64,000 bases of DNA, from contig JAJYLD010000006.1 of the NCBI GenBank assembly GCA_021788015.1, positions 1,744-65,743 of the forward strand, written 5' to 3'. Below, one piece after another: positions 6,071 through 58,944 of this stretch. This stretch comes from a bacterium. GTDB lineage: Bacteria > Patescibacteriota > Patescibacteriia > Patescibacteriales > JAKAJF01. The number at the start of each line of letters is the position of its first letter. The first letter of the stretch is position 1. The notes below the pieces were generated by a model. It ran no database searches, was not told the origin of the DNA, and was given only the letters and a program-made list of their open reading frames with translations. The position numbers and the translations under genes are program-made.

Positions 6071-6228
6071 TTTAAAACACCGAGGGGTTCGGGAGCGGAA
6101 TTGAGTCCCGACAGATGTCGGGAAATTGGAGCCCCCGAAACTTTCCCGCCCGCATCGCTATGCGAAGCATTGCGAGCAGGTTTGGTTACTTTCTTGGTTC
6201 CAAGAAAGTAACTCTTAGCGAAGCGAGT
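6071..6228 (+). repeat. Family-1 modular hairpin repeat, copy A
   Basis: TTTAAAACACC..GGGGTTCGGGAGCGGAATTGAG, hairpin TCCCGAC..GTCGGGA (6106-6123), GGAGCCCCCGAAACTT, hairpin CCCGCCCGCA..TGCGAGCAGG, hairpin GGTTACTTTCTTGG/CCAAGAAAGTAAC, TAGCGAAGCG. Confidence 0.75.
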
Positions 6229-20432: not shown

Positions 20433-21044
20433 TTATTTTTTACTTACCCATTCATTCCTCTTTATATAAAATCTCCATAGCTTGTCTTTGTACTCTTTCG
20501 CATATTCCACGCCGATCCGTTTTGCGGCGACAATATCCGCTTTTTTAATTTTCATTCCCCTGTCTTCAATCCAAAGCGGAGGAACGGGGCGTGCCCTGTT
20601 CCTACAAATATCAACCCCGTTCATTTTTTTATCAATTCGAAAAGCCTTGCAAAATTTTCCGGGACCATTTGTCGCAGGAATATGATTAATCACGTTCCTA
20701 CGGTTTTCCCGATGATTGCGGTCGTTCACTGATTCAACGGCTCTGATTAAAACCGCCGCCGGATAACCGTGACTCTCGGTTACGATATTGAAACAATAAT
20801 ACATGCCGTAAATCATGTACACGTAGGCGAAGCCGGGATGGCCGAACATGATTTTCGTGCGTTCGGTTTTGCCGCGACTGGCATGGCTCGCCAAATCGCG
20901 CGGGCCGCAATACGCTTCGACTTCCACGATTTTCCCGACCATTTTTTTCCCGCCGATTTTTCGGACGACAAACTTCCCGAGCAAATCTTTCGCCACGGTC
21001 AAGGTATCGTGCTTGTAAAAATTTTGTTTTAAAATTTTCTGCAT
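20433..21044 (-). CDS. mpg: DNA-3-methyladenine glycosylase (Mpg/AAG family)
   Basis: 203 aa. VEVEAYCGPRD..SHA..G.T.R...MFG.PG.AYVY..YG motif block. Confidence 0.85.
   Translation of the reverse strand: MQKILKQNFYKHDTLTVAKDLLGKFVVRKIGGKKMVGKIVEVEAYCGPRDLASHASRGKTERTKIMFGHPGFAYVYMIYGMYYCFNIVTESHGYPAAVLIRAVESVNDRNHRENRRNVINHIPATNGPGKFCKAFRIDKKMNGVDICRNRARPVPPLWIEDRGMKIKKADIVAAKRIGVEYAKEYKDKLWRFYIKRNEWVSKK
20580..20603. repeat. GC-rich near-perfect palindrome inside the mpg coding sequence
   Basis: AGGAACGGGGCG/TGCCCTGTTCCT (one G-T position). Encodes RNRARPVPP in a variable loop region of Mpg. Confidence 0.55.
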
Positions 21045-21046
21045 TT

Positions 21047-21553
21047 TTAAATAAAAATATTTTCCAAATTATTTTCATCCAGATCCCATTTCAAAGGATT
21101 ATTTATAATATATTCTCTTATCTTTATCAATTCATTTTCATTTCTGATTATTCGATCGTAAAAGGAACGTTGCCATTGAAAATTAAAATCGGAATGTAAA
21201 TGAATTAATTTAGATGAGGCAGTCTTAAACGCTCCAATTAATTCAGACAGAGATTTAACTTTTTCTTTTTGCAGGGACAGGTCGCGACCTGTCCCTACGT
21301 TTTCCGAATCAATGATTAAAATTCCATGTAAATGATTTGGCATTATTTTTAAAATATCCAAATAAATATATTTATATTTTTTCAACCATTCCCATTGCTT
21401 TTTTACGATTAAACCGGATTTATTTAAAATCATCTTTCCATTTTTAATTTCTCCAAAATATTTTTTTCTGTTTTTTGTGCAAATGGTTACAAAATAATAG
21501 CCGTCGTCAGAATAATCATGGTCTTTTGCGCGATTCGGTTTTCTGATATTCAT
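21047..21553 (-). CDS. IS200-like / REP-associated (RAYT-like) Y1 HUH transposase family protein
   Basis: HUH motif (MPNHLHGIL) and a C-terminal Tyr region (SFYDRIIRNENE). The likely start is MNIRKPNR at 21553; the ORF-track extension to 21625 runs through a hairpin. Confidence 0.7.
   Translation of the reverse strand: MNIRKPNRAKDHDYSDDGYYFVTICTKNRKKYFGEIKNGKMILNKSGLIVKKQWEWLKKYKYIYLDILKIMPNHLHGILIIDSENVGTGRDLSLQKEKVKSLSELIGAFKTASSKLIHLHSDFNFQWQRSFYDRIIRNENELIKIREYIINNPLKWDLDENNLENIFI
21273..21296. repeat. Perfect 24-bp palindrome inside the Y1 transposase gene
   Basis: AGGGACAGGTCG/CGACCTGTCCCT. Encodes GTGRDLSL just after the HUH motif. Confidence 0.8.
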
Positions 21554-21564
21554 ATTATAATTCC

Positions 21565-21592
21565 GTAGTGACAGGTCGCGACCTGTCACTAC
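21565..21592. repeat. Perfect 28-bp palindrome between the recG stop and the Y1 transposase start
   Basis: GTAGTGACAGGTCG/CGACCTGTCACTAC. Its 18-bp core GACAGGTCGCGACCTGTC is identical to the core of the palindrome at 21273-21296. Confidence 0.8.
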
Positions 21593-21597
21593 ACTTT

Positions 21598-23751
21598 TTA
21601 TTCCAAATGCGTCTGCCTGTCCCATTCACCCAATTTTTCTTTCAGTTTTGGCCAGGCATCAAGACTCGCGTCCTTATTCACGATTCTTTCCGCCTCTTCT
21701 TTCGCCAGTTTCATTAAAACGTAATCAAAAAGCGAAGCGATTTTCAATTCCGGAAAGCCTTTTTGCATCGTGCCGTAAACTTCGCCCGGGCCGCGAAATT
21801 TCAAATCGATTTTCGCCAAAGCGAATCCATCGTGATGTTCGGTTAAAGCGTTCAAACGTTTCAAGGTTTTTTCCGCTTCGCTTTCCGAAAAAAGAAAACA
21901 GTAGGATTGATATTCGCCTCTCCCCACCCTGCCTCGGAATTGATGGAGCTGGGCCAGACCGAATCGATCCGCGCCTTCTATCATCATGATCGTCGCGTTC
22001 GGCACGTCGACCCCGACCTCTACGACCGAAGTCGAAACCAAAACCTTGATTTTATTCTCAAGAAAATCGCGCATGGTTTCTTCTTTTTCTTTCGCTTTCA
22101 TTTTGCCATGGAGCATGCCCATTTTTATTTCGGGGAAAATGGCTTTATCCAATTTTTCAAATTCTTCTTTGACCGATTTGACGCCGAGCTTACTCGCCTC
22201 GCTTCCGCTCAAGCGAAGCGGGTCGGAAATATTAATCAAAGGGCAGATGACAAAAGCCTGTCGGCCTTTCATGATCTGCTCGCGGATGAAATCATAAGCC
22301 TTGCCCCGGTTTTCTTCGGCCACCACCTTCGTCAGTATTTTCTTCCGATCGGCCGGCATCTGGTTGATGATGGACAAATCCAAATCGCCGTACAAAGCCA
22401 AGGCCAAACTGCGCGGAATGGGCGTTGCGGTCGTGCTTAATAAATGGGGAGTAAAATCACCTTCCGGAGATGTCTTTTTGATCAAAGTTTTTCGTTGTTC
22501 CACTCCGAATCTGTGCTGTTCGTCGATTATAGCTAAAACCAAATTTTTAAAATTAATTTTTTCCTGGATTAAAGCATGCGTGCCGATTATTATTTGAGAA
22601 TCATGAATTATGAATTCAGAATCACGATTTTTTTCATCTCCTTGATTCATAATTCCTGATTCATGATTTGTTTTTTTAGCGCCTCTTGTCACTAAACCTA
22701 TTTTTATACCCCATCCTTTCAAAAGACGGCAAAATGATTCGTAATGCTGGCTTGCCAGTATCTCCGTCGGCACCATTAAAACCGCTTGCTTGCCGGCCAA
22801 AGCGGCGTTAAACATGGCGATTAAAGCCACGATTGTTTTTCCGCTGCCGACATCGCCCTCAAGAAGGCGCGACATGGGCTTGTCTTTTCCCAAATCTTTC
22901 AAAATTCCCCAAGCCGCTTTGCGTTGCGCGTCCGTCAATTTGAACGGCAAAGATTGGATTAACTTTTTTGTTTCTTCTTCCCGAAACGGAATCGGTTCGG
23001 CCCGGCTTGCATCCAAATCTTTTTTGATAAGCTGCGATTGCATCTGGATTAAAAAAAGTTCATCGAAAGCGAGCCGTCTGCGCGCGTCGGCGATGTCTTT
23101 ATTCGATTTGGGGAAATGCACTTTTCGCACGGCTTCGCCCAAGCCGAGCAAACCGGAATTCTTTCTTACTTCTTCGGGAAGCCAGTCGGAAAGCCGATCG
23201 GCAAGATGAATTACCTGTTTCATTAAGTAGCGAATTTGTTTTTGGCTCAAATCGTTCGTAAGGTGATAAATCGGCACCAGCCCTTGCGTGTGCACCGCAT
23301 TAATTCCGCGTTGGTCCGCGCTCAGTCCGCGCCAATCTGCGTTCCGAACTTTTTCATAAACGGGCGACATCATAACCGCGCCGGTAAAATCTTCTTCGAC
23401 TCGTCCGGCCAGAGAAACCGCGTCCCCTTCTTTCAGGGTGCGGGTCAAAAAAGGCTGGTTGAACCAAATCACTTTTATGCTTTCGGTTTCGTCGCGGACA
23501 AGCGCTTCGGTTATGAACATTCTTCTTCGCGGACTGCGCTTGTTTTGGATAAGCTCGATTTGCCCGACAATATTTACGGACATGCCCGGCTTGGCATCTT
23601 TAATTTTTAAGATTTTGGAAAAATCTTCATAGCGAAAAGGAAAATAAAAAAGAAAATCCTGGACAATTTCCACGCCCAAACGCCTGAGCTTTATCGCCGT
23701 CGCGCTCCCGATTCGGTTTAATTCTTTGATGGAATAATTCAAAGTTAGCAT
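21598..23751 (-). CDS. recG: ATP-dependent DNA helicase RecG
   Basis: 717 aa. Wedge/OB N-terminus, Walker A GDVGSGKT, DEQHRFG, and helicase C motifs QLHQFRGRVGRG. Confidence 0.95.
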   Translation of the reverse strand: MLTLNYSIKELNRIGSATAIKLRRLGVEIVQDFLFYFPFRYEDFSKILKIKDAKPGMSVNIVGQIELIQNKRSPRRRMFITEALVRDETESIKVIWFNQPFLTRTLKEGDAVSLAGRVEEDFTGAVMMSPVYEKVRNADWRGLSADQRGINAVHTQGLVPIYHLTNDLSQKQIRYLMKQVIHLADRLSDWLPEEVRKNSGLLGLGEAVRKVHFPKSNKDIADARRRLAFDELFLIQMQSQLIKKDLDASRAEPIPFREEETKKLIQSLPFKLTDAQRKAAWGILKDLGKDKPMSRLLEGDVGSGKTIVALIAMFNAALAGKQAVLMVPTEILASQHYESFCRLLKGWGIKIGLVTRGAKKTNHESGIMNQGDEKNRDSEFIIHDSQIIIGTHALIQEKINFKNLVLAIIDEQHRFGVEQRKTLIKKTSPEGDFTPHLLSTTATPIPRSLALALYGDLDLSIINQMPADRKKILTKVVAEENRGKAYDFIREQIMKGRQAFVICPLINISDPLRLSGSEASKLGVKSVKEEFEKLDKAIFPEIKMGMLHGKMKAKEKEETMRDFLENKIKVLVSTSVVEVGVDVPNATIMMIEGADRFGLAQLHQFRGRVGRGEYQSYCFLFSESEAEKTLKRLNALTEHHDGFALAKIDLKFRGPGEVYGTMQKGFPELKIASLFDYVLMKLAKEEAERIVNKDASLDAWPKLKEKLGEWDRQTHLE
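22597..22668. repeat. 72-bp AT-rich palindromic element inserted in-frame in recG
   Basis: Left arm AGAATCATGAATTATGAATTCAGAATCACG and right arm TTGATTCATAATTCCTGATTCATGATT. Encodes ..ESGIMNQGDEKNRDSEFIIHDS.. just before IIIGTHA. Confidence 0.6.
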
Positions 23752-26140: not shown

Positions 26141-26170
26141 AAAACCACGATCTTCGGATCGTGGTTTTTT
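26141..26170 (+). terminator. Strong intrinsic terminator after the MgsA_C-like gene
   Basis: AAAACCACGATC-TTCG-GATCGTGGTTTT plus TT. Confidence 0.75.
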
Positions 26171-35539: not shown

Positions 35540-35722
35540 CTAATTTTTTTCTATTAAATTCATAATTTCATTTTCCAGCTCCGGCCGATCGTAATTGTAA
35601 GACATCTTAACATGCAGAATCGGCAACTGCGCATCTCTGAGCGCTTCATCGACAAAATTGTCTCTTTTTATTCTATCACTATTGAAGTTAAATAATTCCA
35701 TAAAAAAATCACCGCTCTTCAC
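35540..35722 (-). CDS. Short ORF resembling the C-terminal end of DUF2726-type proteins (possible remnant)
   Basis: RIKRDNFVDEALRDAQLPILHVK resembles the RD.FVD..L..AG.P..R motif. Only 53-60 aa. Confidence 0.3.
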   Translation of the reverse strand: MKSGDFFMELFNFNSDRIKRDNFVDEALRDAQLPILHVKMSYNYDRPELENEIMNLIEKN

Positions 35723-35754
35723 GGTGATTTTTTTATGTCCTTATATTTTTAATT

Positions 35755-40711: not shown

Positions 40712-40853
40712 TTCAAAACACAAGGGGGTTCGGGGGCGGAATTGAGCGCCAAGGCGAGCACATTAAATTATAATCAATGTGATAGCGAATTGGAGTCCCC
40801 GAAACTTCTTTGGTTACTTTCTTGGTTACAAGAAAGTAACTCCTAGCGAAGCG
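40712..40853 (+). repeat. Family-1 repeat, copy D (near-consensus)
   Basis: TTCAAAACACAAGGGGGTTCGGGGGCGGAATTGAG, CGCC-AA-GGCG, ATCAATGTGATAGCGAATTGGAGTCCCCGAAACTT, GGTTACTTTCTTGG-TTA-CAAGAAAGTAAC, TCCTAGCGAAGCG. Confidence 0.8.
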
Positions 40854-58852: not shown

Positions 58853-58898
58853 AAACACAAAATCCCTCCTCTTGTTTAGAAGAGGACAGGGTGAGGTA

Positions 58899-58935
58899 CA
58901 AAAAAAGAAATGGCCTTAAAGCCATTTCTTTTTTT
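58899..58935. terminator. Bidirectional intrinsic terminator between convergent genes
   Basis: A-run, GAAATGGC-CTTAAA-GCCATTTC, T-run. Confidence 0.8.
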
Positions 58936-58944
58936 GTGCTGCCG

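Follow-up and report, generated by a model that had tools for sequence, protein, structure and literature searches.

Why should the gene for a putative hairpin-cutting enzyme carry, inside its own coding sequence, a hairpin of the kind that the enzyme is predicted to bind? The question is raised by a 64-kb stretch of contig JAJYLD010000006.1 from a bacterium with a small genome, represented by a Patescibacteria-like metagenome-assembled genome (MAG). All coordinates below refer to this stretch, the window, which has a GC content of 41.7%. On its minus strand, recG, a gene for a 168-aa protein of the Y1/HUH type and mpg lie in this order, and three GC-rich, GTAG-tagged hairpins of one family fall within 1 kb: in the 5′ leader of the Y1/HUH gene, inside that gene and inside mpg. 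Our analyses indicate that the locus is very probably a REPtron, that is, a single-copy domesticated Y1 HUH endonuclease (a REP-associated tyrosine transposase, RAYT, of subclass 2.4 / group 4) together with its cognate hairpins of the repetitive extragenic palindrome (REP) type. The features concerned are the following.

21047..21553, minus strand: RAYT / TnpA_REP gene of Quentin subclass 2.4, 168 aa plus stop, assigned from the open reading frame (ORF) list, Pfam, NCBIfam, fold and motifs
21565..21592, no strand assigned: upstream "double-foot" REP, a perfect 28-bp palindrome
21271..21298, minus strand: in-gene REP with a single foot on the coding strand, with a 24-bp perfect core at 21273-21296
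20578..20605, minus strand: degenerate single-foot REP within mpg, a 21/28 match to the canonical REP
20433..21044, minus strand: mpg, 3-methyladenine DNA glycosylase (Pfam PF02245, 212 bits), containing the degenerate REP
21598..23751, minus strand: recG, the upstream neighbour, from the ORF list and the gene neighbourhood

The upstream element, GTAGTGACAGGTCGCGACCTGTCACTAC, has the structure GTAG-TGACAGGTCGCGACCTGTCA-CTAC and occupies the 44-nt gap between the recG stop codon (21598-21600) and the ATG of the Y1 gene (21551-21553), 5 nt after the former and 11 nt ahead of the latter. The in-gene element has the perfect palindrome AGGGACAGGTCGCGACCTGTCCCT as its core; its 28-mer, GTAGGGACAGGTCGCGACCTGTCCCTGC on the coding (minus) strand, begins with GTAG and is translated in frame as V86-GTGRDLSL-94, ten residues past His76 of the HuH motif. 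The 18-mer that the two elements share occurs exactly twice in the window and not at all in 100 shuffles, and the window holds two perfect palindromes that lack a loop and whose arms measure 12 nt or more, compared with 0.01 expected. Folded as single-stranded DNA (ssDNA), the upstream palindrome reaches -12.5 kcal/mol (z = -7.0) and the in-gene palindrome -11.2 kcal/mol (z = -5.5), with z ranging from -5.2 to -7.3 over the folds of both. An earlier annotation made from the letters alone, the sequence-only reading, had described both palindromes, with their common 18-bp core and the in-frame GTGRDLSL after the HUH motif, and both stand as described.

The same reading had taken the mpg hairpin for a third perfect palindrome, of different sequence. 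While its letters and the peptide RNRARPVPP are as quoted, the palindrome (20580-20603) is imperfect: 10 of its 12 pairs are Watson-Crick, and the two mismatched pairs are G:T on the plus strand and A:C on the coding strand. The surrounding 28-mer on the minus strand, GTAGGAACAGGGCACGCCCCGTTCCTCC, again begins with GTAG, forms 11 of 14 pairs and folds at -7.3 to -8.7 kcal/mol. It is the third-best match in the window to the canonical REP, GTAGGGACAGGTCGCGACCTGTCCCTAC, agreeing at 21 of 28 positions, a score not attained in 200 random windows (five queries, both strands). Because of this match, the mpg hairpin is, as judged by its sequence, a diverged single-footed copy of the same REP and not an unrelated palindrome. 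It lies 442 nt downstream of the RAYT stop and uses the second of the two open frames, giving (C)RNRARPVPP, residues 147-156 of Mpg. Searches with the 18-mer and the canonical 28-mer found no further copies in the remaining 63 kb of the window.

The protein itself displays an HuH motif (N73-H74-L75-H76), a WQ motif (W127-Q128) and a Y motif (Y148-I-I-N-N152-P153). An alignment of 33 homologues shows no variation at H74, H76, W127, Y148 and N152 and almost none at P153, and the profile of these homologues has a sole match among PDB sequences, the E. coli TnpA_REP (4ER8). The best NCBIfam model is NF047646, REP_Tyr_transpos (62.1 bits, E = 5e-17). The Pfam match to PF01797 (Y1_Tnp, "Transposase IS200 like") is weak, at 26.5 bits; as the palindrome-encoded segment interrupts the domain, only the C-terminal half is matched. 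The AlphaFold model (pLDDT 86) retrieves Y1 transposases in Foldseek, with the IS608 and ISDra2 TnpA on top and the best TM score, 0.60 at a root-mean-square deviation of 3.8 Å, for 4er8_A. The model places residues 82-101 in a loop of low pLDDT that links the HuH strand (74-81) to the following helix (102-120), and the palindrome-encoded segment has a pLDDT of about 67. The residues W94, Q95 and R104, by which the E. coli enzyme contacts the GTAG foot, align with W127, Q128 and R137. Since motifs, sequence matches and fold agree, the sequence and the predicted structure identify the protein as a RAYT/TnpA_REP of class 2 (Y---NP), subclass 2.4 or Bertels group 4.

This assignment follows the classification of Quentin, Siguier, Chandler and Fichant 2018 (PMC6006769), in which subclass 2.4 equals RAYT group 4 of Bertels et al. 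2017 (PMC5581495) and is marked by the motifs NH[IFV]H, WQ and YIxNNP, the IS200 subclass 1.1 having Y---Q. According to the same survey, subclass 2.4 genes are flanked by "long" and "double foot" REPs with 5′ GT[AG]G and 3′ C[TC]AC, and the sample came from Cyanobacteria, Bacteroidetes and "various phyla". The window RAYT shares with subclass 2.4 the WQ, YIxNNP and NH[IFV]H-like motifs, the GC stem base and the GTAG/CTAC feet, a variable insertion between beta3 and alphaC, and the low gene copy number with a patchy spread over many phyla; in the window, we found the HuH and WQ/YIxNNP motifs, the variable insertion, flanking REPs, an in-gene REP and low copy number side by side. The linker between HuH and GAFK varies from 22 to 60 residues across the 120 best homologues. 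The window differs from the published sample in its host group, which was not in that survey; in the Leu at the middle of HuH where subclass 2.4 has NH[IFV]H, although this residue is hydrophobic and within the class-2 range listed for the Quentin subclasses; in its downstream REP, which sits inside the neighbouring gene instead of a spacer; and in holding only three REPs in 64 kb. A RAYT with its own REP inside the gene was already described for subclass 2.4 in 2018 (PMC6006769), and the present locus is a further instance. Literature searches for the exact sequences (GGTCGCGACC, GRDLSL and the 18-mer) found nothing relevant, and those for RAYT genes with an internal REP found no later work and nothing for Patescibacteria; the REP GTAGGGACAGGTCGCGACCTGTCCCTAC is absent from Table S1 of Quentin 2018 and from the supplement of Di Nocera et al. 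2013 (PMC3733652).

The Y1 fold, the top Foldseek matches and the Pfam label would also suit an active insertion sequence of the IS200/IS605 type, with the upstream and internal hairpins as its left and right ends. The window RAYT indeed resembles the TnpA of IS608 and ISDra2 in the Y1 HUH fold and, by analogy, in a presumed recognition of hairpins on ssDNA. However, IS200/IS605 TnpA enzymes have Y---Q, distinct subterminal left and right hairpins, multiple copies and often tnpB, none of which applies here: the Y motif is Y---NP, the gene is the only RAYT-like gene in the 64-kb window, its neighbourhood there contains no tnpB, and both hairpins are one and the same palindrome. Moreover, a unit bounded by the two hairpins would hold only half the gene, and the homologues are single genes annotated RayT. 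We rejected this element on motif, copy number and hairpin identity and consider it highly improbable. Thus the "IS200-like Y1 transposase" of the sequence-only reading was right as to the Y1 HUH enzyme and wrong as to the IS200 type.

For E. coli TnpA_REP (subclass 2.2; PDB 4ER8), a REPtron with bacterial interspersed mosaic elements has reportedly been described by Messing et al. 2012 and Ton-Hoang et al. 2012. The window RAYT is like that enzyme in its HUH/Tyr fold, in the W, Q and R positions that read the foot, and in being flanked by cognate GTAG-tagged hairpins. In contrast, it is only about 17% identical in sequence and falls below the NCBIfam equivalog threshold, and the E. coli REPs are imperfect, bulged and single-footed, number in the hundreds and do not occur inside the TnpA_REP gene. 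By analogy with E. coli TnpA_REP and IS608 TnpA, the enzyme of the window would bind the hairpin on ssDNA at the replication fork (lagging-strand template), read the GTAG foot, and then cut and rejoin through a 5′-phosphotyrosine at Tyr148, with His74, His76 and Asn152 holding the metal. Cutting and rejoining of this kind would seed or replace REP copies nearby and, rarely, elsewhere; copies in coding sequence would persist, as only one of the three frames of the 28-mer contains a stop and as these copies lie in surface loops. The conservation of the catalytic residues and of the foot-contact positions W127, Q128 and R137 leads us to predict that this RAYT binds its REP hairpin on ssDNA and cleaves and rejoins beside the GTAG foot. 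The sequence-only reading had likewise proposed the hairpins as candidate recognition or substrate elements of a Y1 enzyme, and they do carry the foot that defines REPs next to a gene with the cognate RAYT motifs. All three hairpins have GTAG on the minus strand, and the GC skew of the plus strand is negative almost throughout, which hints weakly at a placement of the GTAG hairpins on the lagging-strand template.

We followed the in-gene hairpin through 80 metagenomic homologous loci (L127-L206; L numbers denote comparison contigs or loci and P numbers comparison proteins), which with the window make 81 loci, and through the 120 best protein homologues, from Patescibacteria, Omnitrophota, Cloacimonadota, Melioribacteraceae and others. 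In these proteins the segment after HuH reads VGTGRDLSLQ or a paired variant of it (VGNGRDRSLQ, VGAGRDLPLQ, VGGGRDRPLQ, RTGHDLSLQ, VGMGRDPYLR) and is sometimes tandemly multiplied; a few homologues read RDRSRPVPT, the same DNA in another frame, and further peptides that differ between loci include VGNGLKPFPT and VGNRHACSL. At the DNA level, a GC-rich perfect-arm palindrome lies between HuH and WQ in 52 of the 81 loci, compared with 28 of 75 for such a palindrome at most 400 nt upstream and 24 of 76 for one downstream; in loci read by hand, about 16-95 nt separate the upstream REP from the start. The best 28-mer at the in-gene site forms all 14 pairs in 33 of 75 loci and at least 11 in 51 of 75, while a control region of the same genes reaches 11 pairs or more in 4 of 75. 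The sequence-only reading had stated that members of this family often carry a palindrome-encoded segment, and the near-perfect hairpin at one site in these 51 loci bears this out.

The changes within the hairpin are themselves informative. The 33 distinct in-gene 28-mers retain GTAG, GG/CC and CTAC, and their stems vary through paired changes: both partners have changed in 12 of the 14 pairs, and pairing holds in 96% of cells, as against at most 44% with the partner slid. The GTAG foot stands in frame 0 in 38 cases and in frame 1 in another 5; frame 2, in which TAG is a stop codon, is not used. Internal and flanking palindromes of the same locus have a mean identity of 0.76 (at least 0.9 in 14 of 25 comparisons), whereas palindromes of different loci have a mean of 0.54 (at least 0.9 in 34 of 600); none of 5000 permutations reached the likeness seen within loci. 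Because within-locus identity so far exceeds that between loci, each RAYT possesses a REP variant of its own, to which the in-gene copy belongs. These comparisons show the hairpin, and not the peptide, to be what is conserved, and it changes together with the other REPs of its locus. Segments that are ancestral and conserved as protein irrespective of DNA symmetry, which would have argued for the opposite, were not found; the peptides vary and the hairpin persists.

Two side observations concern the homologous genes. In 47 of 54 loci the RAYT gene of this family has a lower GC content than the DNA around it (mean difference -4.6 points, REP included), and the window gene is an extreme case. 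A search for RAYT genes cut exactly at the REP, as a sign of excision of the DNA from the upstream to the internal REP, gave only fragmentary matches in L078, L109 and L122, where RAYT remnants lie beside REP copies (L109 115-327 and 2280-2507; L078 900-1133; L122 5904-6071). The N-terminal and mid-gene fragments of L109 are about 2 kb apart, and the remnants in these three loci are possibly disrupted or rearranged REPtrons.

The copy in mpg is a further example of such a hairpin in coding sequence. Compared with its 119 closest orthologues (51-68% identity), the window Mpg alone has five extra residues, reading DICRNRARPVPPLWIEDR where the orthologues have D[LI]xKxxx-LW[LIV]EDR; the palindrome-encoded residues are thus an insertion, and inserted residues coincide with REP-family DNA that carries a GTAG foot. 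In a syntenic relative whose Mpg is 64% identical (L210), recG is followed by a 237-nt AT-rich spacer, mpg and radA, and the RAYT, the GC-rich palindromes and the Mpg insert are all lacking, as they are in a second syntenic relative (L209). In the window, mpg starts 2 nt past the RAYT stop, and the GC content of the RAYT gene without its REP is 25.7%, below the 44.8% of mpg and the 45.7% of recG. From the absence of hairpins and insert in the RAYT-less relatives and from the foreign GC content, the RAYT and the three hairpins are a lineage-specific module, probably gained by horizontal transfer.

Intragenic repeats of this kind are known. Di Nocera et al. 2013 (PMC3733652) found GTAG REPs within genes whose protein products are known, many of which act in replication and repair. 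Like these intragenic GTAG/CGTC REPs and like the Rickettsia palindromic elements (RPE), the intragenic REPs of the window are short palindromic repeats in frame, interpreted as lying in loops or linkers; unlike the cases in PMC3733652, the window case concerns mpg and is a single degenerate unit beside a RAYT. The RPEs are longer than the window REP. We know of no dedicated enzyme for them. Other Patescibacteria Mpg proteins carry different lineage-specific inserts in the same two loops, for example KINPALFNRCICKAISTAVKKCGV, RPVSPSACRGGGE and TPSTPLLKGGLSA (P0140, P0141, P0143, P0160, P0179, P0188, P0201, P0237), and these may be repeat-encoded segments too.

What, then, keeps a hairpin inside the RAYT gene? 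According to Quentin et al. 2018 (PMC6006769) and Di Nocera et al. 2013 (PMC3733652), such copies are tolerated passengers, so that each of the two hairpins, in the RAYT gene and in mpg, would stem from a single REP insertion into a flexible loop, with neither role nor upkeep. Published structural modelling places the insertion far from the active site, and its loop was suggested to be peripheral and the insertion of little effect (PMC6006769). The low-confidence surface loop of our model, the freely varying peptide with its two frames, and the visible decay of the mpg copy, which retains 11 of 14 pairs and a single foot, all agree with this explanation. However, a neutral copy is expected to lose its symmetry, as the mpg copy does, but the in-gene copy is perfect or nearly so in those 51 of 75 loci, compared with the 4 of the control, among proteins that are only 43-65% identical. 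It also holds the same site and mostly the same frame, and its stem tracks the flanking REPs of its locus. We therefore regard the passenger explanation as doubtful. Since symmetry and locus-specific stem persist in lineages with such divergent proteins, and since the mpg copy, outside that regime, is decaying, we infer, going beyond the literature, that active maintenance preserves the hairpin form of the in-gene copy, whether through selection or through renewal, RAYT-driven or by gene conversion, from the other REPs of the locus.

One use for which a hairpin might be kept is autoregulation, in which the 5′ and in-gene hairpins would be cis-regulatory and a fold of the mRNA or of transcribed ssDNA, or binding of the RAYT, would throttle the expression of the gene itself. 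The arrangement is suggestive: a stable hairpin stands just ahead of the ATG and a second one mid-gene, the upstream REPs of homologues are commonly a few tens of nt (up to about 95) ahead of the start, and the hairpin is conserved where the peptide is not. On the other hand, Y1 enzymes are known as binders of ssDNA and not of RNA, and 29 of the 81 loci lack an internal perfect-arm palindrome, while most lack an upstream one. Nor does the upstream hairpin serve as an intrinsic terminator of recG, because no T-run follows it on the coding strand, where the hairpin is succeeded by GGAATTATAAT; the sole terminator-like call at this hairpin is on the plus strand, antisense to all three genes. Although Di Nocera et al. 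(PMC3733652) argue that many REPs act as RNA elements, we consider autoregulation rather unlikely.

The REP family extends well beyond RAYT genes. A scan for the 18-mer with one genome per species returned at least 120 loci in other genomes (L007-L126), so the palindromes whose genome-wide count the sequence-only reading had proposed do have other copies. Among the matches listed, to which all figures in this paragraph and the next refer, the exact core is found in Bacteroidota, Patescibacteria, Omnitrophota, Nitrospinota, Chloroflexota, Gammaproteobacteria, Spirochaetia, Fibrobacter, Acidobacteria and others, and most matches are the full 28-mer GTAGGGACAGGTCGCGACCTGTCCCTAC. Several Pontibacter genomes carry many loci each, Pontibacter mucosus six (L020, L024, L037, L043, L044 and one contig twice). 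Of 145 copies, 133 are neither in nor beside a RAYT, and copies are rarer in long ORFs than random positions are (30.6% versus 73% in frames of at least 200 aa), so that most copies in other genomes are probably non-coding. REPs are usually lineage-specific; because this one is shared unusually widely, a single sequence across so many phyla suggests horizontal spread of the RAYT-REP pair.

A minority of copies lie in frame inside genes, read as VGTGRDLSx or xRDRSRPVx: in MutL (Gracilibacteria), UvrC (Roizmanbacteria), YchF (Paceibacterota), a Ser/Thr kinase (Patescibacteria) and a GatB/AspRS-like fusion (Flavobacterium), host-ORF names that were assigned by eye from the translations and not by a family scan. 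Together with the Mpg insertion, these in-frame copies support the earlier suggestion that hairpin modules can colonise coding sequence, and they resemble the repair-gene cases of Di Nocera et al. 2013. In Patescibacteria, about 6 of 11 copies are in frame inside long ORFs, compared with about 30% across all phyla, in a small sample; the in-frame cases include L019, L094, L096, L104 and L115 (MutL, UvrC, YchF, Ser/Thr kinase and a secreted protein). This high intragenic share is consistent with scarce intergenic space. The 28-mer also occurs in six contigs of the IMG/VR viral catalogue (L001-L006). In a Bacteroidetes MAG (L030, 1891-2296), eight REPs stand in tandem, six of them at a 44-bp period, and in a Chitinophagaceae MAG (L080, 4068-4922) a 279-bp tandem unit holds two REP copies each; both arrays sit in long open frames (293 and 317 aa) with the REP read in three frames.

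The distribution of copies also bears on a different origin of the palindromes, as by-products of a conserved peptide, VGTGRDLSL, or as sites or terminators for an unrelated factor. VGTGRDLSLQ-like peptides do recur in many homologues, and the centre TCGCGA resembles a restriction site. Yet a second frame of this DNA yields RDRSRPVPT, paired stem substitutions yield unrelated peptides, most copies elsewhere lie off RAYT in probably non-coding DNA, and all three hairpins are missing in both RAYT-less relatives examined. The peptide-motif origin was rejected on frame use and compensatory changes, and we give the explanation as a whole scarcely any credence.

Returning to the REPtron, we can tentatively propose a fuller answer to the opening question. 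The in-gene REP might be a selected cis element that couples the expression or integrity of the RAYT to REP processing, via the enzyme or via its own transcript or ssDNA fold, and enzyme-mediated hairpin replacement might keep it matched to the REP family of the genome; in the gene-dense Patescibacteria, the family would then lie mostly inside coding sequence and preferentially in DNA-repair genes. We consider this extension unlikely, though not negligibly so.

Several points weigh against the REPtron reading or narrow the evidence for it. The 64 kb contain no more than three REP copies, none of them over 1 kb from the RAYT, and the many dispersed copies of the core come from other genomes, such as that of Pontibacter mucosus. 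The score of 62.1 bits does not reach the NF047646 equivalog cut-off of 80 bits, so that the protein is, on sequence, related to the curated equivalog and yet outside it. Cleavage sites and strand preference for subclass 2.4 are extrapolated from subclass 2.2 and IS608. The covariation count is partly circular, its 28-mers having been selected for pairing, and the 38:5 frame bias may reflect common descent or selection on the peptide and is by itself no proof of selection at the DNA level. The empty-site comparison consists of the two relatives L210 and L209.

What role RAYTs and REPs play has been debated for a long time, and no branch has been studied less than subclass 2.4 / group 4. The present locus is a compact natural case of a gene that carries the predicted substrate of its own enzyme, it sharpens the question why RAYT genes keep that substrate inside themselves, and it extends the published arrangement to a phylum outside the original survey. 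To the earlier description our comparisons add the compensatory stem changes, the use of two frames, the core shared across phyla and the RAYT-less relatives that lack the hairpins.

There is also a value for annotation. VGTGRDLSL or RDRSRPVPT in MutL-, UvrC-, Mpg-, YchF- and kinase-like proteins are repeat insertions and not motifs. In the window, the RAYT ORF can be extended to an upstream ATG at 21625 by reading through the upstream palindrome, and the database gene call (P0001) accordingly has 192 aa, probably wrongly absorbing the REP, which becomes a "coding" VVTGRDLSL. Because the start at 21625 overlaps recG by 28 nt and because homologues begin at the 168-aa start position (21553), the upstream REP is most likely non-coding, and the 192-aa call is probably a misannotation that arose because the REP has no stop in that frame.

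Other repeats in the window are of different kinds. Long AT-rich or mixed hairpins with short loops and arms of 12-17 nt, at 35699-35737, 58898-58937 and 26141-26168, look like ordinary terminator-type stem-loops outside the REP family. A second, unrelated repeat family is represented at 6125-6225 and 40788-40852; its copies share ATTGGAGyCCCCGAAACTT and, further on, TTTGGTTACTTTCTTGGTTmCAAGAAAGTAACTCyTAGCGAAGCG, and contain a 28-bp near-perfect palindrome (6185-6212; 40813-40840), the copy at 6125-6225 having a 36-nt insert. Strings resembling TAGCGAGCGA, from this second family, are found in the recG-mpg spacer of L210.

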